This document shows positions 16,889 through 34,923 of a stretch of DNA of 64,000 bases, in pieces (positions within the stretch are counted from its first letter, which is position 1; each line of letters starts with the position of its first letter). The stretch comes from a virus. The stretch covers positions 286,616 to 350,615 of IMG/VR virus record IMGVR_UViG_3300046616_000314. One strand, written 5' to 3'. The notes under the pieces were generated by a model. The model had not been told where the DNA came from, did not search any database, and saw nothing but the letters and a program-made list of their open reading frames with translations. A program made the translations under genes and the position numbers.

Positions 16889-17167
16889 TTACTCAGTCTT
16901 GATGAACTTGCTCTGGTGTTGCGCCATGTCCTCTGGGGACTCGTAACCGAGCAATTGCCACTCGGGAATCGGGAGAACCAGAGGCAGGACGAAGTAGCGC
17001 ATATGCGCGTTGTCCACCGTTTGTTGAGCCTTGGCTTTCCACGCGGCGCGAGCTTGAGCCGGATCGCTGAAGACACCAACCACGTCAAGGTTGTCTGGGT
17101 CCTTGAAGATCGTGCCTTGAACGTGAACCAGTTCACCGCCGATTACCAGTAGAAGTTTCTGTTCCAT
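16889..17167 (-). CDS. small conserved protein, DUF4170-like (alphaproteobacterial family, recalled from memory)
   Basis: LLLVIGGELVHVQGTIFKDPDNLDVVGVFSDPAQARAAWKAKAQQTVDNAHMRYFV resembles small alphaproteobacterial proteins of the form ...LVFGG.L.D....F.DL..L..VGV...Y..A..AWRAKAQ.TVD.A.M.Y. Confidence 0.35.
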   Translation of the reverse strand: MEQKLLLVIGGELVHVQGTIFKDPDNLDVVGVFSDPAQARAAWKAKAQQTVDNAHMRYFVLPLVLPIPEWQLLGYESPEDMAQHQSKFIKTE

Positions 17168-17174
17168 CTTACCC

Positions 17175-17528
17175 TCACAAATTGATTTTTAGCATCATCA
17201 TGTCGGCGTCAAACATTTCCTTGTCGCCGTTCCATGCGAAACAATCGCAGCTTTTGTCAGTGATATTATGCTGACTCGAAAAGCTGTAAAATTCAGCAAC
17301 CCATTCATCCGCTTCAATTATGAAATGGGTAGATGAATTGGTCTTGAGTTGCCCGTAGTCTTCCGCCGGTTGGAAAAAGATTTTTACCGTGAAGTTCTTG
17401 CCAGAAAAATCCACGTGCCGCATGGCGCCGCATTTTTCCTTACCATTCCCGAAGAAGAAAGAATCCAACTCGGGTAGAACGAAGCGCATCAAGAGACGCT
17501 TATATTCCGGCTCAATGATGCGCTTCAT
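17175..17528 (-). CDS. hypothetical protein (last gene of the NAD operon)
   Basis: 117 aa ORF lying 6 nt downstream of nadE on the same strand. Confidence 0.45.
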   Translation of the reverse strand: MKRIIEPEYKRLLMRFVLPELDSFFFGNGKEKCGAMRHVDFSGKNFTVKIFFQPAEDYGQLKTNSSTHFIIEADEWVAEFYSFSSQHNITDKSCDCFAWNGDKEMFDADMMMLKINL

Positions 17529-17533
17529 CGTTC

Positions 17534-19327
17534 CTAGTTCCGCCAGCGGTTCACGATGGGATAGCGACGATCCCGACCAAAAATCTTGCTTCCGATCTTA
17601 ACACCGGGAGCCGCTTGGCGACGCTTGTATTCAGCGTTATCCACAAGTTTGCGGATTTTCTGAACAACATCCAATCGAACTTCAAGTTCGACAACGATGT
17701 CAGCGACCGACAGTTCTTCTTCGATCATCGCCTTGAGGATCGAATCGAGAACCGGATAGGGCGGCAGGCTGTCTTCGTCCTTTTGATCGGGACGCAGTTC
17801 AGCCGAAGGCGGCTTCACGATGATCTCTTCGGGAACCACTTGAGTTGCCCGACCCAAGAAGCCAAATTCCGTCAGATATTTTTGCGGAATGGCATTGCGC
17901 CAGCGGCACAAGTCCCAAACCGTCGTCTTGTAGCAATCCTTGATCGGATTGAAGCCACCGCTCATGTCGCCGTAGAGGGTCGAGTAACCCACGCTGACTT
18001 CCGACTTGTTGCCGGTGGTCAGGAGGATATGACCCTCTTGGTTGGAGATCGCCATCAGGATAGTACCACGGGCACGCGCCTGGATATTTTCATCCGCAAC
18101 GCCTTCAAGCTCACGAAGACCAGCAGTCATACCCTTTTCGTACTGGGCACTGCTATAGGCAACGCGCAGCGAATTCACGACGTTCTCAATCGGGATGGTT
18201 CGCATTTGCGCACCAAGGCGATCAGCCCCGGCTTCTGCATCCGATAGCGAGTGATCCGAAGAGAATGCCGAAGGCAGGCGAACCAAGTGAACGTTCTCGG
18301 GACCGATGGCGTCACAGGCGACAGCCGCGACCAGACCGGAGTCCACCCCGCCGCTGTAGCCGAGAACCACTGACTTGAAGCCTTGCTTTAGAAGGTAGTC
18401 ACGGGTACCGAGCACGACAGCTTGATAGATTTCCTGTTCGTGTGGTGTAACGATCTTCGGATAAAGATGCAAGGGAGCCCGATTTTCCGGCGGCTTGATC
18501 CAGTGCGAGAACGAACCGTCATCGCGCACCGAGCCCACAATCGTAGTCGGAACGCCCGCGTCATTATATTCGAAATGGCGCGAACGGGTTTGCGGGTGGA
18601 ATTCGAAGGCGAACAAACCTTCTTTGAAATATGGCGCCGACTGATAGCCCTTGGCGTCGTAGTAGAACGATCCGCCGTCGAACACCAGTTCGTCTTGACC
18701 ACCGATCATGTTGACGTACAGGAACGGCAAGCCGGTTTCCTTGATGCGGTTGGCGATCACTTGGTGACGAGTGACATTCTTACCGGCTTCGAACGGTGAA
18801 CCGTTGATGCTCAGAAGGAACGTGGCGTCATTGTCCGACAGCGAACGGCTCACGCTGGGGAACCAGCAGTCTTCGCAGATCATCAGACCGATGCGTTGAC
18901 CCCGGAATTCGATGGGAAACGGTTCGGCGGTATTTGCTTCGAACACGCGCTTTTCATCGAACACACCGTAGTTCGGTAGTTCGGTCTTGTGGATCAGATC
19001 GACCTTCTTGAGAACCGGATCGATCAAGTACGCACTGTTGCGCGGTTTGACGTTGCCCTTCGTCGGCGTGCCGAAGATGATCCCGGCGTCCATGAAGCCG
19101 CCGCCCATGACAGCATCAATGATGCGTTGGTTGGCGCGTTCAACCGCGTCCATGAACGAATGGCGCGACACCAAGTCTTCGATGGGATAGCCGGTCACGG
19201 CGCACTCTGGGAAGACGACCAGATCAAAGCCCGATTTTGCGGCGTTCTCGTATTGGGCAATGATTTGATCCGCGTTGCCGACGATATCACCGACGACCGG
19301 GTTAAATTGAATGACAGCAATTCTCAT
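17534..19327 (-). CDS. nadE: glutamine-dependent NAD+ synthetase (nitrilase domain + NAD synthetase PP-loop domain)
   Basis: N-terminal CN-hydrolase signature (MRIAVIQFNPVVGD...LVVFPECAVTGYPIEDL...GLMICEDCWFP). C-terminal PP-loop (VVLGYSGGVDSGLVAAV). 597 aa is typical for Gln-dependent NadE; GAGGAA RBS. Confidence 0.85.
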   Translation of the reverse strand: MRIAVIQFNPVVGDIVGNADQIIAQYENAAKSGFDLVVFPECAVTGYPIEDLVSRHSFMDAVERANQRIIDAVMGGGFMDAGIIFGTPTKGNVKPRNSAYLIDPVLKKVDLIHKTELPNYGVFDEKRVFEANTAEPFPIEFRGQRIGLMICEDCWFPSVSRSLSDNDATFLLSINGSPFEAGKNVTRHQVIANRIKETGLPFLYVNMIGGQDELVFDGGSFYYDAKGYQSAPYFKEGLFAFEFHPQTRSRHFEYNDAGVPTTIVGSVRDDGSFSHWIKPPENRAPLHLYPKIVTPHEQEIYQAVVLGTRDYLLKQGFKSVVLGYSGGVDSGLVAAVACDAIGPENVHLVRLPSAFSSDHSLSDAEAGADRLGAQMRTIPIENVVNSLRVAYSSAQYEKGMTAGLRELEGVADENIQARARGTILMAISNQEGHILLTTGNKSEVSVGYSTLYGDMSGGFNPIKDCYKTTVWDLCRWRNAIPQKYLTEFGFLGRATQVVPEEIIVKPPSAELRPDQKDEDSLPPYPVLDSILKAMIEEELSVADIVVELEVRLDVVQKIRKLVDNAEYKRRQAAPGVKIGSKIFGRDRRYPIVNRWRN

Positions 19328-19329
19328 TT

Positions 19330-19671
19330 TTATTCCTCAATATCAACGGGAGTGATATGCCAAACCGAACGGCTCTGGGGTTTCACTCCGGTACGCATGG
19401 CGTCCATCACTTGACTGATATTACTGATTCCGCCAGTAATTTCAACAAAGCCAACGCCGACGATGTTTAGGGCAAGCGCATCCGCACCCGCCGTGATGTT
19501 TTGAACCTTGTCATTCTTAAGAATGATTTCAGTACAATCGACCAAGTTCTTGATGTTCTTGATCGCTTTCACGTGTCCAATTTTCAGAGCCACCTTGGCT
19601 GCATCATCTTCATTGTGGGCGAAGATGCTGCAACCAGAGTTGGCAGAATTGGTGATGCGGTAGATACGCAT
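19330..19671 (-). CDS. hypothetical protein within the NAD operon
   Basis: 113 aa ORF packed tightly between pncA and nadE. Confidence 0.45.
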   Translation of the reverse strand: MRIYRITNSANSGCSIFAHNEDDAAKVALKIGHVKAIKNIKNLVDCTEIILKNDKVQNITAGADALALNIVGVGFVEITGGISNISQVMDAMRTGVKPQSRSVWHITPVDIEE

Positions 19672-20316
19672 TTAGTCCTCGTGCGGATAGGCGTGAGCGA
19701 AGGTCAGGTTTTCGTTACCCGGAAACTCTTCCAAGATAACTTGCTGCATGTCGCGCACGATGCCCTTGGTCAGGTCAGCCATGACGATCACCTTGAAGCC
19801 ACGCTTCAGGAAACCTTCAATCGCCCAAAAGACGCAGAAGTCGGCAGCAAAACCGGTGATGATGATCGTATCGACGCCTTGCGCCTTCAGATCGGCGAAG
19901 AATTCATCGCGATCATAGTACGAGTTGGTCAGCGCGAGACGCAGATCGCGCAGATACAACTTGTCTTCTTCCCACATATTGAAGACGCCCTTTTCCAGGG
20001 CATAGACCGGGATGGCGAAATTGATCAACGCCGGATTGATGACGTTCTCCCAACCGGGTGTGCCCTTTTCACAGTGCAGATTGAAGCCTGGGGCGCCCAC
20101 TTCCGGGTTGCCGAGATTTTCCGGCGAGCCGATGAAGGTTTCTTCGGTGTGCGTATCGAAGGTGTTCAGAACACCCGCGATTTCGTCAGGGTTCAAGCTG
20201 GCGTTCCAACGCAGCAGCTTGGAAACCACGGCTTCAGCACCTTCCACCGGCAGGGCAAAGCCCTTGAAGATGAAATCGGCTTGGGTATCAACGTTGACCA
20301 CAAATTTGTTTTTCAT
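19672..20316 (-). CDS. pncA: nicotinamidase / isochorismatase-family cysteine hydrolase (PncA-like)
   Basis: VNVDTQADF (the VDxQNDF motif), ...IITGFAADFCVFWAIEGFLKRGFKVIV (catalytic Cys in the GxxxxxCV context), ~214 aa. Confidence 0.65.
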   Translation of the reverse strand: MKNKFVVNVDTQADFIFKGFALPVEGAEAVVSKLLRWNASLNPDEIAGVLNTFDTHTEETFIGSPENLGNPEVGAPGFNLHCEKGTPGWENVINPALINFAIPVYALEKGVFNMWEEDKLYLRDLRLALTNSYYDRDEFFADLKAQGVDTIIITGFAADFCVFWAIEGFLKRGFKVIVMADLTKGIVRDMQQVILEEFPGNENLTFAHAYPHED

Positions 20317-20328
20317 AATATTTTTTCC

Positions 20329-21663
20329 TTAAACCAGAACCGGAGCACCATCGAGACCTTCGATCCCGAACAGTGCGCGGTAGCGGTCCACTTCAGAGGC
20401 GGGACCAGTTGCCTTGTTATAGTTGTCCGACATCTTCACGGCAGGACGCCCATCGGCATCCTTGATCTTGGCAACAACCGAGATCGAACCCATGTAGTCG
20501 TCAGCTTCGCCAGGGACGCAGCCATAGAAATCGTTCGACAGGTTGGTACCCCAACCAAAGCCCATGCGGACCTTGCCACGGAAGTAGGCTTCGATTTCCA
20601 AGATGTCTTCACCGTGGGTGTCGTAGCCATCGATCTTGACATCAAGACCGTCGCTGAAAATAATCAGCTTTTCTTGCGGGTTCTCGCCGTGCGTCTTCCA
20701 ATATTTGATCAGTTCGTCACCGCCAGGAATCGGCTTCTTGGAGTCGGGGCGAGCACCCGTCCACTGAGAAACCCATTGCGGGGCATTCTCAAGGAACTGG
20801 GTCGTGCCGAACGTGTCGGGCAGGAAGACCAGCAGTCCGCCGCGATATTGCGCCGCCCACTTCAGGAGCACCTTGTATTGTGCATCCTTCAGTTCGGCAT
20901 CGTCTTGCGCCAGAGCCGCCAGGGTCATCGGTAGTTCATGGGCGTTCGTGCCCTTGGCTTCCAAACCATGCTTCATGGCGAGATATGCGTTCGACGTACC
21001 GGTGAAGCGGTCGCCAAGAACTTCCTTCGCCAGCAGCATGGCGTATTCTTGCCAAAGGAAGCTATGGCGACGGCGAGTGGCGAAGTCCGTCAGGTTCAGG
21101 TCTTCGACAGTCGCCAGCTTTTCGAGCTTGGCGTACAGCTTCGCCTTGGCGCGGGCATACATGATGTCGATTTGGGTAGCCGTCAGCTTTGACATCCGCG
21201 AACGAGCAAGAAGCTCATTGATGATGGTCAGTGCGTAGATTTCCCAAAGCGTCACTTCGGTCCAAGTGCCGTGGAATTCGAGGATGTATTGACCGGTTTC
21301 TTCGTCAACTTCCAATGAATATTCCGGCAGTTGGAACGTCTTCAGATATTCGATATAGCCCGGCTTGAACAGTCGGTCTTGACCGTAGAAGGTGTTTCCC
21401 TTGAGCCAGTGAATCTCGTTCGGCTGGAAACGCAGCGTGCGAGCATGGTCGAGTTGCGCGCGGAGTTGCTTGATATTGATGTTCCGCGCGAGCTTCACTC
21501 GCTTGGTACGATTGGTGACGGCGAACGTCACCTTCGTATTGAAGAAATCTTCACGGATAAGCTGTTGCATCAGCAGCTTATAAAAATCGATGTCCAGCAG
21601 CGACCGAACGATGGGGTCGATGTCGTAAAGAAGGGCGTCTTTGGCGCGTTTTGCAAAATCCAT
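20329..21663 (-). CDS. pncB: nicotinate phosphoribosyltransferase
   Basis: Aligns by eye to E. coli PncB: DIDFYKLLMQQ/DTDAYKLHMQQ, LWEIYALTIINE/LWEVPLLAVISE, FATRRRHS/FGTRRRFS, GTSN, GTNAHE/GTQAHE, KMSDNYNKATG/KLSDSPGKTIC. Confidence 0.8.
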   Translation of the reverse strand: MDFAKRAKDALLYDIDPIVRSLLDIDFYKLLMQQLIREDFFNTKVTFAVTNRTKRVKLARNINIKQLRAQLDHARTLRFQPNEIHWLKGNTFYGQDRLFKPGYIEYLKTFQLPEYSLEVDEETGQYILEFHGTWTEVTLWEIYALTIINELLARSRMSKLTATQIDIMYARAKAKLYAKLEKLATVEDLNLTDFATRRRHSFLWQEYAMLLAKEVLGDRFTGTSNAYLAMKHGLEAKGTNAHELPMTLAALAQDDAELKDAQYKVLLKWAAQYRGGLLVFLPDTFGTTQFLENAPQWVSQWTGARPDSKKPIPGGDELIKYWKTHGENPQEKLIIFSDGLDVKIDGYDTHGEDILEIEAYFRGKVRMGFGWGTNLSNDFYGCVPGEADDYMGSISVVAKIKDADGRPAVKMSDNYNKATGPASEVDRYRALFGIEGLDGAPVLV

Positions 21664-21668
21664 AATAA

Positions 21669-22760
21669 TTAAACTTTCTTAATCAGAGCTTCGGAGTCGC
21701 TGATCATCTTCCAATGATCTTCGAAATATTCGTAACGCGGAATGGTATCCGGGTCCTTCCAAACGGCGCGCTTGGCGTCCGACGCCGCGCGAACCTTCGG
21801 ATACGCCAGGGCTTCGCGAACCTTGGTGATATCGGTCACGCCCGGCGGAATCTTCGGAGTCAGATTGATGAAGGTGGTGTGGCTGACGGTGCGCTTGCGA
21901 GTCGAGCGATTGGGATCATCGTAGGTTTTTTCGCCGATGATGCTGTTGCGTAGAGTTTCGCGAGCGACCTTCAGACGGGTCTCTTCGTACAGTTCCTTGA
22001 TCGCAGCGTCCGCAGCCGTTTGATTTTCGCAGTGACCACCGGGGACCGCCCACAGACCCTTACCGGGGAAGCCGCCGCGCTGGACCAAAAGAACCTTGCG
22101 CGCTTGGCGAACGACCGAATCCGCCGTGTAGAAAATCGGCGGATAGGGAGCACTGTCCCATTGCCCCAGATAGTTTTGCATGAACACCTTCTCGGCAAGA
22201 AGGCTTTCAAGATATTCGGGGGTTTGACGGAATTCTTGAAGGAAGGCGATCACGCCTGGGGCGAGATATTCAGTCGCTTCGCCGTTCAGGAATTCCGAGA
22301 CGAGGCGTTGATCTTCGACAATATATTTGTCGCGCGCATAGGTCGCGTTGATCCCACGGAAGTTGGGGACTTCGACGCTTTCCCAATCGGGGAACTGCGA
22401 CAGATAATAGCCGGTGGGTTGATCTTTCTTGTGACCGACAAGGGCGGTGGGATCATCTTGAACGATATCCCGCGTGGCATCATGCACGGCGGCTTGCCAT
22501 TGCGAAATGTTGCCATAGTCCATGACGTTGACGAACTTGACCCGACGCAGTTGTTCGGGAGGCAGCATACGCCGCCACATTTCTTCACGTTCAAATTCTC
22601 GGAAGGGAACATGGTCCCATCGCCGTGCGGCGAAAGAAGAACCGTTGACGACAACTAGTTCTTCGCATTCTTGTAGCCCGGCTGCAACTACGGCGCCGTG
22701 AGCTAGTGTTACTGGTTGACCGCGAACAACGGTCACACCGTGACGATAACGATACTTCAA
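21669..22760 (-). CDS. nadM: bifunctional NMN/NaMN adenylyltransferase - Nudix hydrolase (NadM-Nudix type)
   Basis: N-terminal nucleotidyltransferase region (VVRGQPVTLAHGAVV, GQP..xHxGH-like). C-terminal Nudix box GGHCENQTAADAAIKELYEETRL (Gx5Ex7[RK]ELxEEx). The architecture matches NadM-Nudix and phage NatV. Confidence 0.65.
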   Translation of the reverse strand: MKYRYRHGVTVVRGQPVTLAHGAVVAAGLQECEELVVVNGSSFAARRWDHVPFREFEREEMWRRMLPPEQLRRVKFVNVMDYGNISQWQAAVHDATRDIVQDDPTALVGHKKDQPTGYYLSQFPDWESVEVPNFRGINATYARDKYIVEDQRLVSEFLNGEATEYLAPGVIAFLQEFRQTPEYLESLLAEKVFMQNYLGQWDSAPYPPIFYTADSVVRQARKVLLVQRGGFPGKGLWAVPGGHCENQTAADAAIKELYEETRLKVARETLRNSIIGEKTYDDPNRSTRKRTVSHTTFINLTPKIPPGVTDITKVREALAYPKVRAASDAKRAVWKDPDTIPRYEYFEDHWKMISDSEALIKKV

Positions 22761-22813
22761 GGTAAATCCTACCGAGCTATGGTAGCGCGTGGACTATTCC
22801 TGCGCCATGTTTT

Positions 22814-22821
22814 TATTTATA
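22814..22821 (-). promoter_or_regulatory. T4 late-promoter-like TATAAATA box upstream of the NAD operon
   Basis: Plus strand reads tatttata, so the minus strand reads TATAAATA, 54 nt upstream of the nadM start. Confidence 0.3.
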
Positions 22822-22862
22822 CCAAACTTTTTTCGTAAACGCAATTAAAAAATGCGGGCAAG

Positions 22863-22895
22863 AAAAAGCCCGGCGATTGCTCGCCGGGCTCTTGT
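22863..22895 (-). terminator. rho-independent terminator downstream of the mucR-like gene
   Basis: GCCCGGCGAttgctCGCCGGGC hairpin with a T-tract on the minus strand. Confidence 0.55.
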
Positions 22896-22920
22896 AGTCT
22901 CTATAGCTGGCGCCGAGAGA

Positions 22921-23475
22921 TTAGGCTTCGGTCGAAGCCAGATCAGCAGCGGCGTTCTTGGCTTCCGATTCCACGACGGTTTCCTTGGCGGGCTTGCGAG
23001 CCTTGGTCGCCTTCGGAGCCTTCGCAGCCGGGGCAGCAGCCTTCGCCTTGCGACCGCCTTGACCCAGACCCAGAGCCTTCGCCATCGCCGAACGGGCTTC
23101 CGAGTAGGCGGGCGCCGTGGTCGGGTAGTCGTTCGGGAGACCGAACTTCGCCTTGTATTCGGCGACGGTCATGCCGTTGGTGGTCAGGTGACGCTTCAGG
23201 GTCTTGTAGGGCTTGCCGTCGATGAAGCTGATCAGCGCGTCGTTGGTCACGGACTTGCGGATTTGAGCCGGGGTCGCCTTGGCTTGCTCGTCAGCGACGA
23301 CAGCGACCGGCGAAGCGGCGTTGGTCAGACCGGTCAGAGCCGCCGAAATGGCGCCGATGACGCCGGGGATGTCGGTCGCCGACACGGCGTTGTGCGAGAA
23401 ATAGGCACCAGCAACAGCGGCGGTCAGTTCGACGGTCGAAGTCGCGGACGACACGGGTTGAGTTTGATCAGTCAT
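22921..23475 (-). CDS. mucR: Ros/MucR-family transcriptional regulator homolog, zinc-finger-less variant with Lys/Ala-rich C-terminal tail
   Basis: VELTAAVAGAYFSHNAVSATDIPGVIGAISAALTGL and IRKSVTNDALISFIDGKPYKTLKRHLTTNGMTVAEYKAKFGLPNDYPTTAPAYSEARSAMAKALGLGQ align to Agrobacterium Ros ([104 protein letters not shown]). The Cys2His2 ligands are replaced by I/S and T/N. The tail reads KAKAAAPAAKAPKATKARKPAKE. Confidence 0.8.
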   Translation of the reverse strand: MTDQTQPVSSATSTVELTAAVAGAYFSHNAVSATDIPGVIGAISAALTGLTNAASPVAVVADEQAKATPAQIRKSVTNDALISFIDGKPYKTLKRHLTTNGMTVAEYKAKFGLPNDYPTTAPAYSEARSAMAKALGLGQGGRKAKAAAPAAKAPKATKARKPAKETVVESEAKNAAADLASTEA

Positions 23476-23798
23476 ATTCGCTCTCTGTCTGTTTCACAAA
23501 AGGATGCCGCAACCATCAGCGGCGTTGGAGAGCCTTGAAATTAGTTCGCTGCTTTCAAGGTGTCAACAGCACTCATAGAGATTTTTTGATTTTATGCTGT
23601 TTTGGCAAGCCTAGACACTGATTTTAGACCAACGGATACATGAGCTAGATGCAAAAGGTTTAATGAAAAAATCAATAAAATCATATAGTTATGGTGGAGG
23701 TTCCGTAGAGGCTCACCGCTTTGGGGGCTTCTGAAACTTTTTTTGCTTTTTTGCTTGGAACCAAAGCTTTTCGAAAGATATTGCGCGTAAAAGGGACC

Positions 23799-24299
23799 AT
23801 GAGTTATGATTATCAGATGACAACGAAACTTGATCTCGGCTTCAAACACGGTGGATTGGCTCGCCAGCTATCCAATCTCTACGCTTACCCTTTCGTGCTC
23901 GATGGCACGCAATGCGGCTCTATTGAGGGCTTTCTTCAGGGTGTGAAATTCCAGGGCTTGGAAGAACAAGCCTTGATTGCGTCTTTGCAGGGCTACGAAG
24001 CTTATAAGACCGGGCAACTAGGGAACGACTGGAAAGAAACTCAAACCCTGTGGTGGCAGGGTAAGGCTTTTCCTCGCCTTAGTAGAGAGTACCATACTCT
24101 CTTAGAGCGGGCGTACGATGCGTGCTTCGATCAGAACCCGGCTTTCGTACAAGCATTGATCGACAGCGGCATTGATGTCCTGACACATTATATGGGGCAT
24201 CACGATCCGCATAATTCGGTGCTCACCGAATGGGAATACATCTATCTTATGTATCGAGCGCGTACGAAGGCGTTCCAAGGGATCATGGCAGAAACTTGA
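23799..24299 (+). CDS. NADAR (YbiA-like, DUF1768) domain protein, predicted ADP-ribose/NAD-derivative N-glycosidase
   Basis: GGLARQLSNLYAYPFVLDGTQCGSIEGFLQGVKF ... GNDWKETQ ... NPAFVQALIDSGIDVL matches the NADAR core (LSNFYP.PF..DG..Y.SVEHYFQA.KF ... DWE ... NP.L...LL.TG). AAGGGA RBS 4 nt upstream. Confidence 0.65.
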   Translation: MSYDYQMTTKLDLGFKHGGLARQLSNLYAYPFVLDGTQCGSIEGFLQGVKFQGLEEQALIASLQGYEAYKTGQLGNDWKETQTLWWQGKAFPRLSREYHTLLERAYDACFDQNPAFVQALIDSGIDVLTHYMGHHDPHNSVLTEWEYIYLMYRARTKAFQGIMAET

Positions 24300-24325
24300 C
24301 AGTGCCTTAACGAAAGTTTATAGAC
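24297..24325 (+). promoter_or_regulatory. sigma70-like promoter candidate
   Basis: TTGACA at 24297-24302, a 17 nt spacer, then TATAGA at 24320-24325, upstream of the 24350 ORF. Confidence 0.3.
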
Positions 24326-24349
24326 AGGATTCCGGTCGAGGGAATTTCT

Positions 24350-24592
24350 ATGTCATCTGACGAATTTGGTATTTTGTTTCTCGCTGCGGTGTGTCTTGGA
24401 CCATTTGTGTTAGTTTGTTTTTTTGCCCTGAACGAAAACCGCAACAAGGGCAAGTGGGAAACCGTCAAGGATGACGGGCGTTATTCCTATCAACAACACA
24501 AGGTGACGGGTAAGCGGCGCCTTTGGGTGTCTAAAGTTGGTCTCCTTCCTGTAAATCAGGATTGGGTAGACGGCAAAACTGATATTCTTTAG
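24350..24592 (+). CDS. small membrane protein
   Basis: 80 aa with an N-terminal hydrophobic helix (ILFLAAVCLGPFVLVCFFAL). Confidence 0.4.
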   Translation: MSSDEFGILFLAAVCLGPFVLVCFFALNENRNKGKWETVKDDGRYSYQQHKVTGKRRLWVSKVGLLPVNQDWVDGKTDIL

Positions 24593-24594
24593 GA

Positions 24595-24900
24595 ATGAAA
24601 ATGACCGCTTCCGTCCGTCAGCCCGTCGTGTGGGTGAAATCCCCGGTGAAACAAGAAGAAGAAAACGCCCGATTGGCGCGTGAAAAATCTGCAATGATCG
24701 TCAAAGTGCAGGTTCCCTTCATTGAAGACGGCGAAGTGTCGGTGTATCGTGAAGGTCGAAAGGGTTTGAAGCACCAAGCCCTGACCGTCGAAGAACAAGC
24801 CATGCTGGGCGATGACCGCAAGGCGCATTTTAAGGCGTTATGGAACGTCGATGCCGTTCGATGGGATTTGCTGAAGCGGGTTAAGGACCAAGCGTGGTAA
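24595..24900 (+). CDS. hypothetical protein
   Basis: 101 aa ORF. Confidence 0.4.
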   Translation: MKMTASVRQPVVWVKSPVKQEEENARLAREKSAMIVKVQVPFIEDGEVSVYREGRKGLKHQALTVEEQAMLGDDRKAHFKALWNVDAVRWDLLKRVKDQAW

Positions 24901-25211
24901 CTTCCATTAAGTGGTATGCGCGGGTAAAAGAGACCTCTGGTGGAATTTTGAAAACGATTGACTGGGTTGAAGAAAATTGCCCCGGTTGGTCGTTTTTCGA
25001 TATTAAAAGCAAAGATGGTCCGCTACCTGAAATCAAAAGTATTTTGAGCTTGAGTGCGATAGATGCACCCGAGCGCAATATGGAATATGAAATCTATTTT
25101 GTTCAAGAAGAACATTTTGCGATATTTAAGCTATATAAGTCTGAAAGGATAATTGCATCTTCGACTGTTTGGGTAAGTAATATTCCCAATCTTTCGTGGG
25201 GACCAGAATAA
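24894..25211 (+). CDS. small protein, weak member of the F[KR]LK family
   Basis: Contains ...VQEEHFAIFKLYKSE. Confidence 0.35.
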   Translation: MVTSIKWYARVKETSGGILKTIDWVEENCPGWSFFDIKSKDGPLPEIKSILSLSAIDAPERNMEYEIYFVQEEHFAIFKLYKSERIIASSTVWVSNIPNLSWGPE

Positions 25212-25220
25212 CCAATTATC

Positions 25221-25481
25221 ATGATTAAGATTGAGCTAGATGTTAAGAATTCCGACATGCGTTCATTGCATGTGTGGCTCGACGCCAATTGCATTGGTTG
25301 GTGCTATCAAGGTGCAGGAAACCGTTTGTCCAACGAGCTTTGGGCAAAGAAAATGAACAAAAACATCGGCGCCCGCCAGAACGATATGAAAATTATTTTT
25401 TATGTAAAAGTTATCGAGGACGTTGCGACGATTCGTTTAAAATACGGCGGCGTCCGCGTAATTTCCGTCGATATCAATTGA
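25221..25481 (+). CDS. small protein of the F[KR]LK[YW]GG family
   Basis: Ends ...IEDVATIRLKYGGVRVISVDIN. Confidence 0.4.
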   Translation: MIKIELDVKNSDMRSLHVWLDANCIGWCYQGAGNRLSNELWAKKMNKNIGARQNDMKIIFYVKVIEDVATIRLKYGGVRVISVDIN

Positions 25482-25494
25482 TTAACGAATTTAA

Positions 25495-25854
25495 ATGGTG
25501 CATAGACGCCATGAGGGGGAACCCATGATCGAATTACCGAAAAACAAAAACAATTTTTGGGTTGAAGCACGTGTGCTGATCGCAGCTACCTTGCATCTGA
25601 TCCTTTGGAACATCTGGCATTTGAAATTTGCCATTTTTCTCGCACTCGTCACCTTTGGGTTTGCGGATGGAATGGCAAAGCAACTGATTGCCCCCTGGCA
25701 ACTGTTGGTCTTGATTTCGTTTGTCGTGTTGATCGCCTACAGCGATGGCTCTACAGCCAGAGACAGTTACGAACACCACATGCGCAAGCGTGAGAATAGC
25801 AACGCAGCTAAGTTCCAGCGTAAGATGGACAAGCTCAAAGCAAAAAAGAAATAG
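25495..25854 (+). CDS. small membrane protein
   Basis: Three hydrophobic segments and a basic C-terminus. Confidence 0.4.
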   Translation: MVHRRHEGEPMIELPKNKNNFWVEARVLIAATLHLILWNIWHLKFAIFLALVTFGFADGMAKQLIAPWQLLVLISFVVLIAYSDGSTARDSYEHHMRKRENSNAAKFQRKMDKLKAKKK

Positions 25855-25856
25855 AT

Positions 25857-26375
25857 ATGAACATCATCTATAAGCACGGCGACCTAATGGCTTCGCCGGA
25901 AACATTCATCGTTCAGGGCTGTAACGCCCAAGGTGTAATGGGTTCGGGTGTCGCGAAGCTATTGCGTGACGCAGATGAAACCATTTACTCCGAATATCGA
26001 CAAGTTTACGAGGACCAAGGCAATTTCCTGAAGCAAGGGCAATGCGTTTGGGTTTTCTCGAAAGTGTTGAACAAGTTCGTTATCAACGCGATCACACAAC
26101 GATTTTATGGTCGCGAACCCGGCGTGGTCTACGCGGATTACGATGCCATTGAACAAGCGTTCCGTGACATCAATGATCATTTCTATAAGCATCGCAACGA
26201 GAATGCGACTATCCCTCAAGTGGCAATGCCTTTGATCGGAGCCGGGCTTGCTCAAGGTAAGTGGTCGATCATCGCTCAAACCATCGAAGAAAGCGCGGAG
26301 CATTTTCAGCCCGTCGTCTATCTGATGGACGGGATCATTCCCGATGGTGTTCAAGGGGAAGTCATCAATGCGTAA
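25857..26375 (+). CDS. macro domain protein (ADP-ribose binding / ADP-ribosyl hydrolase, Appr-1''-pase family)
   Basis: IVQGCNAQGVMGSGVAKLL (the N-A-x-N...GGGV-like motif) and QVAMPLIGAGLAQGKW (the PxIGxGxxG motif); 172 aa is typical for a single macro domain. Confidence 0.7.
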   Translation: MNIIYKHGDLMASPETFIVQGCNAQGVMGSGVAKLLRDADETIYSEYRQVYEDQGNFLKQGQCVWVFSKVLNKFVINAITQRFYGREPGVVYADYDAIEQAFRDINDHFYKHRNENATIPQVAMPLIGAGLAQGKWSIIAQTIEESAEHFQPVVYLMDGIIPDGVQGEVINA

Positions 26376-26619
26376 AATTATTCTAATTGCCTTGCTGGCT
26401 CTCAGTGCGTGTGGTCGCCCGCCCGAAAAAACCAGCGAAGACACCAAATCTACCGTGACCACCGATTTTACGTTGGTGCGCAAATGCGAGAACGGCAGCG
26501 AGCTATATCGACTAAGCAACGGAGACCTTGCGCAATACAACGCACCTAGCGAAGGTGAGGGATATTTCGTGAAGTTCGAAGGAACAATAGAAGAATATTG
26601 CGTCGAAGCTTCTTCTTGA
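26368..26619 (+). CDS. small lipoprotein
   Basis: MRKIILIALLALSAC: signal peptide with the L-S-A-C lipobox; AAGGGGAAG RBS; start taken inside the longer ORF at 26344. Confidence 0.5.
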   Translation: MRKIILIALLALSACGRPPEKTSEDTKSTVTTDFTLVRKCENGSELYRLSNGDLAQYNAPSEGEGYFVKFEGTIEEYCVEASS

Positions 26620-26674
26620 CCAAACGAAAATAATCGTGTAAAAAGCCCTTTGAAACTCTCAGAGGGCTTTTTTC

Positions 26675-26908
26675 ATGAGCACGGAATCGATTGGTGGCGC
26701 GTTGTCAGCGGAAGAACTGGGCGAAGCCCTGTCCGGTGGTAACTGGACCGTCGTGGAGACCGATCCCCGCTGGGAAGAAGAAAATCGTCTGCGGGCGATT
26801 GAAGACGAGAACGTTCGTCGTCGCACCGCCATGAAGAATCCCATCATTGCCTTCATCCACTGGGTTTACCAGTCCGAATGGCACAAGCAAACCAAAGCCG
26901 AACGCTGA
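26675..26908 (+). CDS. hypothetical protein
   Basis: 77 aa ORF; a terminator-like hairpin lies upstream at ~26640-26665. Confidence 0.35.
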   Translation: MSTESIGGALSAEELGEALSGGNWTVVETDPRWEEENRLRAIEDENVRRRTAMKNPIIAFIHWVYQSEWHKQTKAER

Positions 26909-27108
26909 TGGGAACGCAATTTCTTCGTCAAGGGAAATACGCCAAATTGTCGGCTCGTGGCAATGATGGTGTGGAATGGGTGGAAGATCGGGTGATTAGC
27001 TCGATCCTCTACGATGACGATATCATTGAATGTATTCGGAAAATGTACCCGGATGCTACCGAAATTCAAGTTGACCCTAACGCAGACGAATTTAAGAGAT
27101 TTATTTGA
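26878..27108 (+). CDS. hypothetical protein
   Basis: 76 aa ORF ending ...ADEFKRFI. Confidence 0.35.
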   Translation: MAQANQSRTLMGTQFLRQGKYAKLSARGNDGVEWVEDRVISSILYDDDIIECIRKMYPDATEIQVDPNADEFKRFI

Positions 27109-27485
27109 TGGCATATTCAGGTTGGGAAATTAGCGAAAAAGATCGCGCGACACTCATGGGGATCATGGGTGCCGCTTATCCTGACGTGATCGCTCATCAT
27201 ATCACCTTGCGTCCTTTTGTTCGCAAGGATGATCCCGACGAATTGCCCCCGGAAGTTGTCGCCGAAGCTGTTGGCTGGGCGGACAACGGTGTTGGCGTAC
27301 AAGCAATTGTTGTTGCGATAAACGGTTCCACCAAGCGTCCCGATGGTCGTACTTACCATATTACGTGGTCGATCAACCGCGCCGCTGGCTACAAGCCGGT
27401 GGACAGCAATCGTGTTATCGAACTAGGCTGGAATGTGCTCTTTGAGCCTGTTCCTCTGACAGTAACTCCCAAAATCTTCAGTTAG
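27105..27485 (+). CDS. hypothetical protein
   Basis: 126 aa ORF. Confidence 0.4.
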   Translation: MMAYSGWEISEKDRATLMGIMGAAYPDVIAHHITLRPFVRKDDPDELPPEVVAEAVGWADNGVGVQAIVVAINGSTKRPDGRTYHITWSINRAAGYKPVDSNRVIELGWNVLFEPVPLTVTPKIFS

Positions 27486-27495
27486 GATACTCGAT

Positions 27496-28554
27496 ATGGG
27501 TTCTTGGAACCATACCTGCATGATTTCTCGGATGCCGGTACTTGATGGAGAGAAAGTGGTTTCGCTATTCCTGGCTCAACAGAGCCAAGATTATGTGAGC
27601 TTCGTTTACGCCACCGCGTTGTGGGCGCCGATCCCGTACGTGGTTCATGGTGAATATAACGATTATGGCGCCGTCCATAATTTCACCGGCAAAAGCGACG
27701 CGCATCTGGTGGAGTATTTTAAAGAAAATGCTATCAAGATGGGCATTGGTGAAAACGAGTACCACGATATCGAAATCAGTGAAGAAAAGATTTCGAGTGA
27801 TGGTCTGGAATTCATCTACAGTGCCGACCACGAAAATCGTCTGCAATTCAGCGACTATCGGAAGAACAAACTTCTGGTGAAACACGTCGTAATCCGCGAA
27901 TCCTTGTACAACAAGGTGCTCTCGGATTACAGTTTCTCGAATTATCAAATGAAGCTGGGCGCCAAGAAAACCGACAGCTACGTTTCGGAAGATCACGAAT
28001 ACGTTCGGGTCAATTTCGCTTACATCACGCAAGATTGGGAAAACCAATCCAAGAAAATCATCGAACTGCTTCGCGAACAACTCAGCGAAGAAAAAAATAT
28101 GTTCGGAATGCGGGATGATTATCTCATTCGGACGTTGACACAAGATATTTACGACCACGAAGCCACGCTTCCTGCGCTACAATGGTTGAGCGGTGCATCG
28201 GGTGGGCGCGGCGAGTCGGCGGGATGGATGCCCCCTCTTGGCTTCTGGTCCAAGTTCAGTGGAATGTCGGACGCTGATGCGGCTGACTACCTGTACGAAT
28301 TCCTGAAGTTTGCGTGGTTCAATCGTTTCGTTTGGGATTCGCGCATCACGTGGTTCCCGTCCTGTAACGCCAGCCAAGATTCCGATATGGACGCCCAAGT
28401 CTTCCTGGCGAACTATATGAAGGAAGAAGCTCGATCCCTCATCAAGGAACGAATCGAAGACGATTGGGAATTCGATCCCGATCAGCTTGCGGCGGTCGAT
28501 TTGCTCGATTACAAGCCCGCCAACTTCGAAGATGCCACCATCGCCGAAGACTAA
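27496..28554 (+). CDS. hypothetical protein
   Basis: 352 aa ORF; the minus-strand ORF overlapping it looks like an antisense artefact. Confidence 0.5.
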   Translation: MGSWNHTCMISRMPVLDGEKVVSLFLAQQSQDYVSFVYATALWAPIPYVVHGEYNDYGAVHNFTGKSDAHLVEYFKENAIKMGIGENEYHDIEISEEKISSDGLEFIYSADHENRLQFSDYRKNKLLVKHVVIRESLYNKVLSDYSFSNYQMKLGAKKTDSYVSEDHEYVRVNFAYITQDWENQSKKIIELLREQLSEEKNMFGMRDDYLIRTLTQDIYDHEATLPALQWLSGASGGRGESAGWMPPLGFWSKFSGMSDADAADYLYEFLKFAWFNRFVWDSRITWFPSCNASQDSDMDAQVFLANYMKEEARSLIKERIEDDWEFDPDQLAAVDLLDYKPANFEDATIAED

Positions 28555-28559
28555 GGAAA

Positions 28560-28590
28560 AAGCCCCCGGAACGATCCGGGGGCTTCTTTC
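28560..28590 (+). terminator. rho-independent terminator
   Basis: AAAAGCCCCCGGAacgaTCCGGGGGCTTCTTTCG. Confidence 0.6.
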
Positions 28591-28791
28591 GTTGGTAAGG
28601 TGTCGGGTCTGGCTAGGGTCGTGAGTGGTCTCTATGGTGCGGACACAGAGACCACTCACGAATGACCAACAACGCAGGGTCGGGTCTGGGTGTGCCAGTC
28701 ACGCTTGCACCTTATAAACCATAGTTCTCTGTGTCAAATTGAATCGGACATAATGTCGCACTTTTTTATTGCATCTGTGAGTATGCACTGA

Positions 28792-28799
28792 TATAAATA
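28792..28799 (+). promoter_or_regulatory. T4 late-promoter consensus TATAAATA immediately upstream of the tRNA
   Basis: Exact TATAAATA lies 9 nt before tRNA position +1. Confidence 0.35.
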
Positions 28800-28808
28800 A
28801 TAACTGTT

Positions 28809-28883
28809 GCGGGTGTAGTTCAGTGGTAGAACATCAGTTTTCCAAACTGAGTGTCGCTGGTTCGATCCCAGTCACCCGCTCCA
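28809..28883 (+). tRNA. tRNA-Gly (anticodon UCC)
   Basis: Cloverleaf folded by hand: acceptor stem GCGGGTG/CACCCGC, D-arm GTTCAGTGGTAGAAC, anticodon stem TCAGT/ACTGA with loop TTTCCAA (anticodon TCC), T-arm GCTGG-TTCGATC-CCAGT, discriminator U, encoded CCA. Confidence 0.8.
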
Positions 28884-28888
28884 ATCCT

Positions 28889-29128
28889 TCAAATCTTTGG
28901 TGGTGCAGGCTTCTTAGGTAGAGGCTTGATGAATGCTGGATTTGTTAGCTTGTAGTGCGTGCCACACGCCGAACAATGGAAATCCAGAGTACGGAAGATC
29001 GCATTCTTGAAATGCAGTTCCGCAACTTGACCACAATCGCAACTGAATTGCAGTGGTCCCATCATCATTTTATATTGGTTAGTAGCCTCAATCTTGGGTT
29101 CTGAACCCGGAAACTTAATAATTTTCAT
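28889..29128 (-). CDS. small zinc-ribbon protein
   Basis: CDCG...HCSACG pattern, 79 aa. Confidence 0.4.
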   Translation of the reverse strand: MKIIKFPGSEPKIEATNQYKMMMGPLQFSCDCGQVAELHFKNAIFRTLDFHCSACGTHYKLTNPAFIKPLPKKPAPPKI

Positions 29129-32572: not shown

Positions 32573-32938
32573 GTGTATACTTCCGAAATTACTATGCGGA
32601 GATTTGTTATGCCCGAATTTCGAGCCAGCGATATCAGGACCACGAATTATTCTCACGCTTTCCAAGCGTCGATGTTCGCTGACAAAACCGAATGGACGAA
32701 AGCCAAGAGTGGCAAGGATTTCGCTCGAAAGTTTTTCGAAAAGAATCCCGATCTTTTGGAAGACCCTCGGACGTGGCAAGCCGGTCTCGGCGTCCAATTC
32801 GAAGAAGGTAAGTGGTCCTATTACCACCCTGGCGAATTCGGCTATATGATGCCCGACACGATTCGGGCTACGTTCTCGCCAGAAGTTTTGGCGGCGATGC
32901 AAAAGCTTCAGGACTTCGGTCAACCGCATGGTCTCTAA
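32573..32938 (+). CDS. hypothetical protein
   Basis: 121 aa ORF. Confidence 0.45.
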   Translation: MYTSEITMRRFVMPEFRASDIRTTNYSHAFQASMFADKTEWTKAKSGKDFARKFFEKNPDLLEDPRTWQAGLGVQFEEGKWSYYHPGEFGYMMPDTIRATFSPEVLAAMQKLQDFGQPHGL

Positions 32939-33944
32939 ACTCCTAACGCGCGAGCAATTCAGCGAGCAAGTGATTGGTCGTGCGAAGGGGAAGTGCGTCT
33001 TTTGTGGTGATCCGGCTACCGAAGCTCATCACATTATGGATCGCAAATTATTTAAGGATGGCGGATACTATCTCGATAACGGCGCGGCTGTCTGTAATAC
33101 CTGCCATATGAAATGCGAAGACAACACATTCACAGTTGAAGAAGTCAGAAAAGCGGCGGGTATTACTGAAGTAATTCTTCCACTTGACTTTGACCCCGAC
33201 TTACTATACGATAAGTGGGGTAATATCACACTTAGTGACGGAACAAGGGTCAAGGGACCGTTGTTTGAGGACACTGCGGTCCAAAAACTTTTGAAGAGGG
33301 AGCTTCGCATGTATGAACATCTTGTAAAGTATTCCTCGACTCCGCATCTGCCTCAGTCGCGGACGCGCACGGAAGACGACAAGGTTCTCAAGACCATCGA
33401 ACATCTGTTGAAGTTCAATGGTGTTGCGACTGAAAAAATGGATGGCGAGAATGCCTCGCTGTACAACCATCACTATCACGCACGGTCGCTTGATAGTCGT
33501 CACCACGTGTCGCGTGATTGGATCAAGTCGTTCTGGGCAACCATCAAGGAAGACATTCCGGTGGGTTGGCGCGTGTGCGGCGAAAATCTGTTCGCAGAGC
33601 ATTCCATTGGTTACAACGACCTTCCGAGCTATTTCCTCGGATTTTCGGTGTGGACCGACAAGAACGAATGTTTGGGCTGGGATGATAGCCTGGAATGGTT
33701 CGACCTTCTGGGCGTCACTCCGGTCCCGGTGCTGTATCGCGGTCCTATCTCTGAACAAGTCATCATGGACTTGATCAAGGGTATCGACATCACGGTTCAA
33801 GAGGGTTTCGTCCTTCGTAACGAAGGTTCGTTCCACTACGACGATTTTGCTTCTAATGTTGCCAAGTGGGTGCGTCCTAAGCACGTGCAAACGGACCAAC
33901 ATTGGATGGCGAAGGATGTCGTGCCCAACGGGCTTAGGAAGTAA
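32928..33944 (+). CDS. HNH nuclease - RNA ligase (Rnl2-like nucleotidyltransferase) fusion protein
   Basis: N-terminal HNH (CVFCGDPATEAHHIMDRKLFKDGGYYLDNGAAVCNTCH). C-terminal ligase motifs I EKMDGEN (KxDG), III/IV WRVCGENLFAEH and EGFVLRNE, V AKWVRPKH. Confidence 0.6.
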   Translation: MVSKLLTREQFSEQVIGRAKGKCVFCGDPATEAHHIMDRKLFKDGGYYLDNGAAVCNTCHMKCEDNTFTVEEVRKAAGITEVILPLDFDPDLLYDKWGNITLSDGTRVKGPLFEDTAVQKLLKRELRMYEHLVKYSSTPHLPQSRTRTEDDKVLKTIEHLLKFNGVATEKMDGENASLYNHHYHARSLDSRHHVSRDWIKSFWATIKEDIPVGWRVCGENLFAEHSIGYNDLPSYFLGFSVWTDKNECLGWDDSLEWFDLLGVTPVPVLYRGPISEQVIMDLIKGIDITVQEGFVLRNEGSFHYDDFASNVAKWVRPKHVQTDQHWMAKDVVPNGLRK

Positions 33945-33945
33945 G

Positions 33946-34923
33946 ATGCGTGCAGTAATTTTTGACATTGATGGCACGCTAGCGAACTGCGATCACCGGT
34001 TGCACTATCTAGACAATGGTCGCAACTGGGATGGCTTCTTCGGTGATATGCATCTGGACACGCCGATTGAGGCGGTGGCTTGGCTTGCCCAATTCATCGC
34101 CTCAAACGCGCGTGCTGGCGCCTTTGACACCGATATGAAGGGCATCATGCGCGACGACCACGTTGCCGTGCTCGTTGTCACCGCGCGCCCCGATGACAAG
34201 GATTATCGCGCCGTCACTGAAAAGTGGCTGGCTGACCATGACATCGTGTACGATAAAATTTACATGCGTGCCGGTGGAGACTATCGCCCTGACCAAATCG
34301 TCAAGGGCGAAATCCTTCAGCAAATCCTTGAAGATGGCTACGATCCCTTCTTGGTGGTCGATGACCGTCCGCAAGTGGTGGATATGTGGCGTAGCTTCGG
34401 CATCACCACGTTCCAATGTGCGGCTGATGAGAGCAAGCGTTGCCGCCCCGAAGATCAAGGCAAGCTGCTTCTGACGATGCTGGTTGGTCCCGCGTGTGCG
34501 GGTAAGAGCACCTATTGCAAGAAACACTTCAAGGCGGATGACATCATTTCGACTGATGACATTCGGGTGCAACTGTACGGGGATCGTTCAAAAGGGCATA
34601 ATCCCGATGAGCTTGCGCGCACGTGGAAGTATGCTCACTCGCTGATCAAGGCACGGTTGGAGAATGGCGTATACACGGTTCTGGACGCCACGAACCTCAA
34701 GAAGAAAGATCGCCTCAAGGTTCTGGAATCGGTTCCTTCGGGCGTGTTGGTCGAGTACGTTGTGTTGGATCGCGATTATGATACGAAGATCGCGGAACGC
34801 GGTGTGCGCTCTGTTGAACTGATTGATAAACACCATAAAACGTTTAAAAGCCAAATCAAAGAAATCCTGAATGCAGACGGGATGGGCTTTGTGATGGTGA
34901 AGGACGCGAGAGAAAAGAAATGA
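33946..34923 (+). CDS. pnkp: polynucleotide kinase-phosphatase (N-terminal HAD 3'-phosphatase, C-terminal P-loop 5'-kinase)
   Basis: HAD motifs VIFDIDGTL (DxDGT), VLVVTARPD, K...VVDDRPQ, then Walker A LLTMLVGPACAGKST. Start taken at ATG 33946, immediately after the upstream stop. Confidence 0.7.
   Translation: MRAVIFDIDGTLANCDHRLHYLDNGRNWDGFFGDMHLDTPIEAVAWLAQFIASNARAGAFDTDMKGIMRDDHVAVLVVTARPDDKDYRAVTEKWLADHDIVYDKIYMRAGGDYRPDQIVKGEILQQILEDGYDPFLVVDDRPQVVDMWRSFGITTFQCAADESKRCRPEDQGKLLLTMLVGPACAGKSTYCKKHFKADDIISTDDIRVQLYGDRSKGHNPDELARTWKYAHSLIKARLENGVYTVLDATNLKKKDRLKVLESVPSGVLVEYVVLDRDYDTKIAERGVRSVELIDKHHKTFKSQIKEILNADGMGFVMVKDAREKK

Follow-up and report, generated by a model that had tools for sequence, protein, structure and literature searches.

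Genes for ADP-ribose-processing proteins next to genes for the synthesis of nicotinamide adenine dinucleotide (NAD+) raise the question of what such a combination does for a virus. The locus considered here lies in a stretch of 64,000 nt (the window, to which all coordinates refer) from the IMG/VR virus record IMGVR_UViG_3300046616_000314, positions 286,616 to 350,615. The window derives from a T4-like myovirus, as seen from a Portal_T4 protein at 53419–55197 (E 6e-96). A megablast search of 17000–29000 against GenBank phages gave no match, and the phage therefore has no close cultured relative. A preliminary description had proposed an 'island' of ADP-ribose-processing genes next to an NAD operon, comprising a NADAR domain protein (23799–24299) and a stand-alone macro domain protein (25857–26375), together with the Nudix half of NadM. 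All three domains are present, the last with a NUDIX match of E 8.6e-14. The region is probably a counter-defence cluster of a large T4-like phage, which would erase ADP-ribosylation from DNA.

A predicted gp30.3-type NADAR protein

The protein encoded at 23799–24299 matches the Pfam family PF08010 Phage_30_3 ('Bacteriophage protein GP30.3') over profile positions 4–133 of 138 (E 1.8e-39, 135.1 bits, cut-off 36 bits), as well as phrog_652. A tblastn search found homologues in 1509 phage records, chiefly from Straboviridae. The protein is predicted to adopt the NADAR (YbiA) fold and contains the C-terminal helix (residues 144–165). Residues E43 and K50 align with E36 and K43 of T4 gp30.3; E43 does not vary in an alignment of 25 sequences, and conservation of K50 is 90% or higher. 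H130, the residue immediately after the last strand (residues 127–129), is also invariant in these sequences. The gp30.3 proteins form the phage clade of NADAR proteins, with a His where YbiA has a Glu and the DarT-linked NADARs have an Asp (PMC11125620). H130 was equated with this phage-type His by position and invariance rather than by structural superposition. There is no match to Pfam NADAR (PF08719/DUF1768) at E ≤ 0.01, and a profile of the family reaches Escherichia coli YbiA only at E 0.0096. Of the earlier name 'NADAR/YbiA-like', the first part is retained. The second was rejected, based on the lack of a PF08719 match and the presence of His rather than Glu at the last-strand position. 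Within the NADAR superfamily, its sequence places the protein in the phage gp30.3 clade and not in the YbiA clade.

T4 gp30.3 has been renamed AdfN. It strips ADP-ribose from DarT1-modified DNA, acting specifically on guanine adducts, and makes T-even phages resistant to DarTG1; the substitutions E36A and K43A each impair this anti-DarTG1 activity, as does removal of the C-terminal helix (PMC11825919). The connection between NADAR proteins and the reversal of DarT modification of guanine, which the preliminary description had mentioned, has been shown experimentally for this T4 protein (PMC11825919, PMC11125620). The window protein and T4 AdfN belong to the same Pfam family, are 36% identical in a MAFFT alignment, have the catalytic Glu and Lys, the phage-type His, the C-terminal helix and the predicted NADAR fold in common, and are both stand-alone proteins of T4-like phages. 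However, the window protein falls in a separate sub-clade. The genomic context also differs: T4 gp30.3 sits in the gene 30/alt region without NAD genes, while the window gene heads a cluster adjoining the NAD operon and a gene for a MucR/Ros-family regulator. The NADAR antitoxin DarG1 has the same fold, but DarT-associated NADARs typically carry Asp where the window protein has His.

A predicted DarG-like macrodomain

The protein encoded at 25857–26375 matches Pfam Macro with 30.6 bits (cut-off 22 bits); its match to phrog_335 has an E value of 7.7e-38. The sequence identity to T4 Tk.4 is 29% (E 1e-12), and homologues are found in 722 phage records, including a KVP40 gene annotated as tk.4. 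A 29-member profile of the family was compared with the Protein Data Bank. The best match is BT1257 (6e-24), followed by DarG of Mycobacterium tuberculosis (2.7e-17), SCO6735 (3e-17), DarG of Thermus aquaticus (1e-16), yeast Poa1p (1.5e-15) and TARG1 (3e-14). DarG is the only match in NCBIfam and PADLOC, and the macro part alone is covered (positions 1–140 of 338 and 2–137 of 329, respectively; score 37.7 against a cut-off of 250). By this profile coverage, the C-terminal DarT-binding domain of DarG2 is not found in the protein. No DarT toxin gene occurs among the window open reading frames (ORFs) scanned, and the genes adjoining the macro gene do not encode ADP-ribosyltransferases (ARTs). DarG1 and DarG2 use the same two folds, NADAR and macro, for the reversal of guanine- and thymine-linked DNA ADP-ribosylation, respectively, and both window genes look like orphan antitoxins.

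The active-site-loop Asn of the macrodomain, N23 (GCNAQG), is invariant in 29 sequences. It aligns with the Asn of the DarG VNTVN motif and corresponds to N22 of T. aquaticus DarG and N23 of PhiKZ AdfM (PMC13309987). Q81 is invariant in the same set and falls at the position of Gln85 in SCO6735; Gln is also found here in T4 Tk.4 and BT1257. Of the conserved catalytic residues anticipated for the two proteins, the NADAR protein retains the Glu and Lys (E43 and K50), along with the phage-type His (H130), and the macrodomain retains the Asn but not the DarG-type Lys. The profile matches and motifs point to the TARG1/DarG/SCO6735 (ALC1-like) class, with T4 Tk.4/AdfM as a homologue.

Several members of this class act against DarT. 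The gene tk.4, named adfM, is the single T4 gene needed for growth on a DarTG2 host, and its knockout sensitises T4 to DarTG2 (10.1101/2025.11.20.689424). In an independent study, a PhiKZ macrodomain, also named AdfM, removes DarT2 marks from DNA (PMC13309987). SCO6735 cleaves thymidine-linked ADP-ribose efficiently and protects against DarT (PMC9411070). DarT toxins had been named earlier as possible targets of the locus, and for the macrodomain this agrees with its membership of the DarG2 class and with the ties of these three proteins to DarT2. Like T4 Tk.4/AdfM and PhiKZ gp104 AdfM, the window protein is a stand-alone DarG-like macrodomain of a large myovirus that keeps the active-site-loop Asn. 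It also has a TQ motif in common with Tk.4. PhiKZ AdfM retains the catalytic Lys of DarG (K78), whereas the window protein and Tk.4 carry Gln. SCO6735 from Streptomyces coelicolor and BT1257 from Bacteroides are cellular ALC1-like proteins that, like the window macrodomain, have Gln in place of Lys.

Conservation of the gene cluster

The order NadE-PncA-PncB-NadM-MucR, followed by AdfN, further genes and macro, is kept in three relatives: L005, a 570-kb contig of assembly GCA_040384025.1, and the IMG/VR contigs L007 and L008. Co-occurrence with the pncA/pncB operon, which the preliminary description had suggested looking for in related phages, is consequently found. Identity to the proteins of these contigs is 50–65% for NadE, PncB, AdfN and macro, and 34–43% for NadM and MucR. 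Because the gene order recurs in three relatives at 50–65% identity, the clustering of NADAR and macro exceeds chance within the lineage. The linkage is lineage-specific. AdfN and macro are 1.6 kb apart in the window, compared with 67 kb between 30.3 and tk.4 in T4, and none of 79 gp30.3 loci in contigs of gut metagenome-assembled genomes, with distant homologues (33–44%), has such a macro gene within 10 kb. The proposed 'island' is therefore a feature of this lineage and not of phages in general.

Two of the relatives have an additional AdfN paralogue, located after the first AdfN and before macro (8317–8772 in L005, 8921–9364 in L007). This second copy is nearer to the gp30.3 sequences of Straboviridae. 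The window has a single AdfN gene.

Single-protein searches of IMG/VR with the macro or NADAR protein gave no matches; homologues were found by an alignment-based search. NADAR genes adjoining NadM and NAD salvage genes have already been described in phages, and Macro, NADAR and Nudix have already been reported to occur together in large myoviruses (PMC9503650, Iyer, Burroughs, Anantharaman, Aravind 2022). That survey describes NadV and NadM salvage and leaves PncA/PncB/NadE unmentioned, whereas the window operon consists of PncA, PncB, NadM and NadE. It also favoured soluble ADP-ribose derivatives as substrates, while later experiments point to DNA adducts.

Proposed mechanism

Family membership, catalytic residues, NADAR fold and synteny were computed here, and the activities of homologues are taken from the literature; we infer which substrates NADAR and macro act on, that their genes are co-transcribed and that they are coupled to the NAD operon. 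In the proposed mechanism, DarT1-type toxins of the host would put ADP-ribose on guanine of phage DNA, blocking replication and transcription. By homology to T4 gp30.3, the AdfN-type NADAR would hydrolyse the N-glycosidic bond between ADP-ribose and guanine. The macrodomain would most likely act on the DarT2-type mark, removing ADP-ribose from thymine of single-stranded DNA by a Gln-dependent and Lys-independent chemistry as in SCO6735. Both reactions would release free ADP-ribose, which the Nudix half of NadM may degrade. PncA, PncB, NadM and NadE could then rebuild NAD+ from the nicotinamide freed by ADP-ribosyltransferases and NADases.

Several observations weigh against this interpretation. 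T4 AdfN is active only within T-even infection, and transfer of its activity to another phage cannot be assumed (PMC11825919). In the macrodomain, the catalytic Lys (K80 in DarG, K84 in TARG1, K78 in PhiKZ AdfM) is replaced by Gln81. However, SCO6735 has the same Lys-to-Gln substitution and is active, and mutation of its Gln85 abolishes all activity (PMC9411070), so a macrodomain without this Lys represents a known subtype and the substitution is no argument against activity. The DNA-positioning Lys34 of SCO6735 corresponds to Ser30, as derived by hand from a comparison of aligned motifs that leaves out the long, Lys-rich mobile loop of SCO6735. A scan for sigma-70 promoters on the + strand of the intergenic region upstream of the NADAR gene (23476–23798) gave matches no better than those in shuffled sequence. 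More widely, the macro family is associated with NAD metabolism rather than with AdfN. In 80 IMG/VR loci, where the macro homologue is 33–60% identical to that of the window and neighbours were taken within 10 kb, a gene for a nicotinamide mononucleotide adenylyltransferase fused to Nudix (NMNAT-Nudix) is found in 10, in several arrangements, and AdfN in five. Among these 10 loci, PncB is encoded in three; six encode a NadV-like protein, as does Sinorhizobium phage phiM12. In one locus (L031, 10001–13603), a macro gene (40% identity) precedes a NAMPT-like gene and a gene with a weak likeness to Pribosyltran/PRPP synthetase, and this may be an operon of the NARP1-AP type. Finally, carriage of DarTG by the host is an assumption.

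The NAD operon and a phosphatase alternative

The operon at 17534–22760 (− strand) encodes the deamidated (Preiss-Handler-type) route, and not the NadV and NMNAT pair of the phage NAD+ reconstitution pathway NARP2. In comparison with bifunctional NMNAT/Nudix models of NCBIfam, its NadM matches NF003786 at E 1.1e-74, below the cut-off. In the searchable literature on NARP1, NARP2 and NARP3, the PncA/PncB/NadE route is unmentioned and PncB is named in no paper.

The proximity of this operon raises the alternative that the macrodomain serves it as an Adpp-like phosphatase of ADP-ribose 1''-phosphate (ADPR-1''P). Host RES-type NAD+ phosphorylases would make nicotinamide and ADPR-1''P, the macrodomain would convert the latter to ADP-ribose, and the Nudix half of NadM would recycle it. 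This role is compatible with de-ADP-ribosylation of DNA; we regard it as possible, if somewhat unlikely. Macrodomains are among the commonest extra genes of phage NARP1 operons, where the Poa1p-like versions (Adpp) are ADPR-1''P phosphatases that defeat RES-domain NAD+ phosphorylases, and the macrodomain of Vibrio phage Gary is a proven phosphatase of this kind countering aRES (10.64898/2026.01.28.702374). The profile match to Poa1p fits this role, although the Poa1p alignment, made via phiM12, is only partial, and PHROGs labels phrog_335 'phosphatase'. The NMNAT-Nudix neighbours in the 10 viral loci and in phiM12 are also consistent with it, as are locus L009, in which macro is directly followed by NadM-PncB-PncA without AdfN, and the NAMPT-like and Pribosyltran-like genes adjoining macro in L031.

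The general likeness to Adpp and Poa1p is that of a Poa1p-related stand-alone macrodomain beside phage NAD+ reconstitution genes. However, the neighbours in the window are PncA, PncB, NadM and NadE and not Adps and Namat, a comparison with Adpp made by description rather than by sequence. No Adps-Namat (NARP1) operon surrounds the macro gene, and the adjacent operon has no PRPS-like Adps. The operon of the window starts from nicotinamide and phosphoribosyl pyrophosphate rather than ADP-ribose, so that rescue of ADPR-1''P is unneeded for NAD synthesis. Furthermore, the best named matches of the macrodomain are DarG and SCO6735, not Poa1p, and within the lineage its gene clusters with one or two AdfN genes. 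Based on the affinity to DarG and SCO6735, the homology to Tk.4 and the cluster in common with AdfN, de-ADP-ribosylation of DNA is more likely than a phosphatase role, and the two are not exclusive.

A broader interpretation would take the 11 kb from 17534 to 28554 as a single 'erase and rebuild' unit, a fourth phage strategy of NAD reconstitution coupled to DarT counter-measures. AdfN and a dual-purpose macrodomain could remove ADP-ribose from DNA as well as the phosphate from ADPR-1''P, a 2H phosphoesterase encoded downstream could open cyclic ADP-ribose or nucleotide phosphates, and the Nudix half of NadM could recycle ADP-ribose. PncA-PncB-NadM-NadE could rebuild NAD+ from nicotinamide, and the whole unit might be under the phage-borne, cysteine-free MucR. 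As a whole this is speculative and distinctly unlikely.

Organization of the locus

The features of the locus are listed in Table 1. The genes from 23799 to 28554 have the same orientation, are tightly packed or overlapping, and end at one strong terminator; this arrangement suggests a single transcription unit. The MucR gene is divergent from the NADAR gene, a position that is kept in L005, L007 and L008. Its product contains no Cys, making the usual Cys2His2 zinc site impossible. Coordinate 22921, at which the region of the preliminary description began, is the end of this gene, which that description left unmentioned.

Table 1. Predicted genes and other features of the locus and its surroundings (window coordinates)
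Feature	Position	Strand	Evidence
ART-PolyVal ADP-ribosyltransferase protein, 399 aa	6963–8162	+	E 1.5e-18
Bax1-I/YccA-like membrane protein, directly after the ART gene	up to 8942	+	E 9.7e-50
GNAT acetyltransferase-domain protein, 433 aa	15404–16705	+	
DUF4170 protein	16889–17167	−	
NadE, glutamine-dependent	17534–19327	−	Pfam; NCBIfam 634.6 bits, cut-off 479
113-aa ORF in NAD operon	19330–19671	−	
PncA-like isochorismatase	19672–20316	−	Pfam; weak NCBIfam PncA match, 30.6 bits, cut-off 174
PncB	20329–21663	−	Pfam; NCBIfam 424 bits, cut-off 379
NadM, bifunctional NMN/NaMN adenylyltransferase and Nudix (ADP-ribose pyrophosphatase-like)	21669–22760	−	NUDIX E 8.6e-14; phrog_395
MucR/Ros-family regulator	22921–23475	−	Pfam ROS_MUCR E 9.2e-37
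Divergent MucR/NADAR intergenic region, presumed promoter region	23476–23798		Sequence; 41.5% GC
Predicted AdfN-type NADAR (T4 gp30.3 family), 166 aa	23799–24299	+	ATG start, AAGGGA upstream
Small ORF, 80 aa, N-terminal hydrophobic segment (transmembrane-like window)	24350–24592	+	No Pfam, PHROG or PADLOC match
Small ORF, 99–101 aa	24595–24900	+	39–45% identical to same-position ORFs in L005, L007 and L008
Three small ORFs (24894–25211, 25221–25481, 25495–25854)	24894–25854	+	No Pfam, PHROG or PADLOC match
Stand-alone macrodomain, 172 aa	25857–26375	+	Pfam Macro; phrog_335
Three small ORFs (26344–26619, 26675–26908, 26878–27108)	26344–27108	+	No Pfam or PHROG match
Minimal 2H phosphoesterase, 125–126 aa, CNPase/Trl1-CPD type	27105–27485	+	
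Acidic 352-aa protein, last gene of + strand cluster	27496–28554	+	phrog_5960 E 2e-21; no Pfam or NCBIfam match
Strong bidirectional terminator-like hairpin closing + strand cluster	28560–28585	+	11-bp stem, 8 GC pairs
tRNA-Gly(TCC), sole tRNA of window	28809–28883	+	
RNA repair pair: RNA ligase, then PNKP (HAD phosphatase and P-loop kinase)	32928–34923	+	Ligase PF09414, weak N-terminal HNH match

The preliminary description had also suggested that the small ORFs between the NADAR and macro genes belong to the same ADP-ribose module. Five tightly packed + strand ORFs are indeed present at 24350–25854, but nothing links them functionally to ADP-ribose, and their membership in such a module is unsupported. 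None of the five matches a family in Pfam, PHROGs or PADLOC, four are unconserved even in the closest relatives, and the common transcription unit is only an apparent one. Only 24595–24900 is clearly conserved in L005, L007 and L008. The first ORF (24350–24592) is not conserved in L005, and the three at 24894–25854 have no L005 counterpart at E ≤ 0.01; just the third of these has a weak match (26%) in L007. Transmembrane-like windows occur in 24350–24592 and in 25495–25854, the latter being a predicted membrane protein. A decayed second AdfN among the five was considered and rejected, as a tblastn search with the L005 paralogue matches only 23799–24299. Variable stretches such as this one are usual between conserved phage genes. 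Of the small ORFs downstream of macro, 26344–26619 has a lipoprotein-like signal (MRKIILIALLALSAC).

A 2H phosphoesterase and possible RNA repair

The ORF at 27105–27485 carries two H-x-T/S-x motifs on a duplicated fold, the signature of the 2H superfamily. Its gene lies 0.7 kb downstream of macro and was absent from the preliminary description, and PHROGs lists the family (phrog_36523) as of unknown function. A 2H gene is found within ~2 kb of macro in L005 and six viral loci, while more distant homologues (P0162, P0175) have no adjoining macro. The enzyme could open ADP-ribose 1''-2'' cyclic phosphate upstream of the macrodomain, heal RNA ends with the RNA ligase and PNKP encoded further downstream, or degrade cyclic nucleotide signals.

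There is also an alternative for the cluster as a whole, in which the macrodomain, the 2H enzyme and possibly the NADAR protein process by-products of NAD-dependent RNA repair together with the phage RNA ligase and PNKP. ADP-ribose 1''-2'' cyclic phosphate would be converted to ADPR-1''P and then to ADP-ribose, a scheme that has been proposed bioinformatically (PMC9503650). The RNA repair pair at 32928–34923 and the presence of a CNPase/Trl1-CPD-type 2H gene near macro, in the window and six other loci, are compatible with this scheme. However, it needs a KptA/Tpt1 2'-phosphotransferase, and a search of the 64-kb window found no KptA-like motif, a weak test that covers only this portion of the genome. 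A HAD phosphatase domain is present in the PNKP, and T4-type RNA repair is not known to leave a 2'-phosphate. Considering also the more distant 2H homologues without macro, and the defence-specific phenotypes of the T4 homologues of both erasers, RNA repair is an improbable function for the cluster.

Other possible substrates

The window also encodes an ART-PolyVal protein, followed directly by a Bax1-I/YccA-like membrane protein (Table 1). Since it encodes such a protein, the phage appears to write ADP-ribose marks as well. The two erasers might then regulate or limit this transferase of the phage itself (self-immunity or timing control), and not act on host toxins. In T4, gene 30.3 is 2.8 kb from alt, and several T4-like phages express NADARs together with ARTs (PMC9503650). 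In the window, however, the ART gene at 6963–8162 is 16 kb away in a separate transcription unit. Phage ARTs are not known to modify bases of their own genomic DNA, and deletion of the T4 homologues gives a phenotype only if the host carries DarTG (PMC11825919; 10.1101/2025.11.20.689424). Control of the phage transferase is therefore very improbable.

Degradation by NADAR and macro of soluble NAD-derived immune signals, such as the Thoeris glycocyclic ADP-ribose (gcADPR) isomers, was suggested in the preliminary description, resembles a general proposal in PMC9503650 and received no support from the computations. It is extremely improbable, as all the proteins that have been characterised from the gp30.3 clade and from the DarG/SCO6735/Tk.4 group have ADP-ribosylated DNA (or protein) as their substrate. 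To our knowledge, the anti-Thoeris factors reported to date act as sponges or inhibitors rather than as NADAR or macro hydrolases, and we know of no NADAR or macro homologue with activity on Thoeris gcADPR.

Phage family and host

The macro protein is present in identical form on a 561-kb contig, and homologues occur on contigs of 545–578 kb. These observations suggest that the phages form a family with genomes of about half a megabase and a T4-type portal; the proteins on which the family is based are P0001, P0011, P0034, P0044, P0046, P0072, P0078, P0082 and P0120. At least two contigs of this kind (570 and 509 kb) belong to assembly GCA_040384025.1. In addition, a 40-kb Logan contig is identical to the window over the retrieved 20.5 kb. 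The host is hinted to be alphaproteobacterial because of the MucR and DUF4170 genes, DUF4170 being mainly alphaproteobacterial.

Implications

The NADAR and macro genes add new members to anti-defence families that were characterised in 2024–2026, and do not constitute a new kind of system. What is less ordinary is the pairing of both erasers in a very large phage, the duplication of NADAR in relatives, the adjacent 2H enzyme and the neighbouring NAD operon, which works via PncA, PncB and NadE. The locus provides a natural test case for whether the substrates of Tk.4-type macrodomains are DNA adducts, ADPR-1''P or both, and for the PncA/PncB/NadE route as a further phage NAD+ reconstitution pathway. 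Counter-measures against DarT, lately known from T-even and phiKZ-like phages, would extend to a very different, very large T4-like phage. The occurrence of the erasers in one cluster, together with the duplication of NADAR in relatives, suggests that these phages are under significant pressure from DNA ADP-ribosylation.

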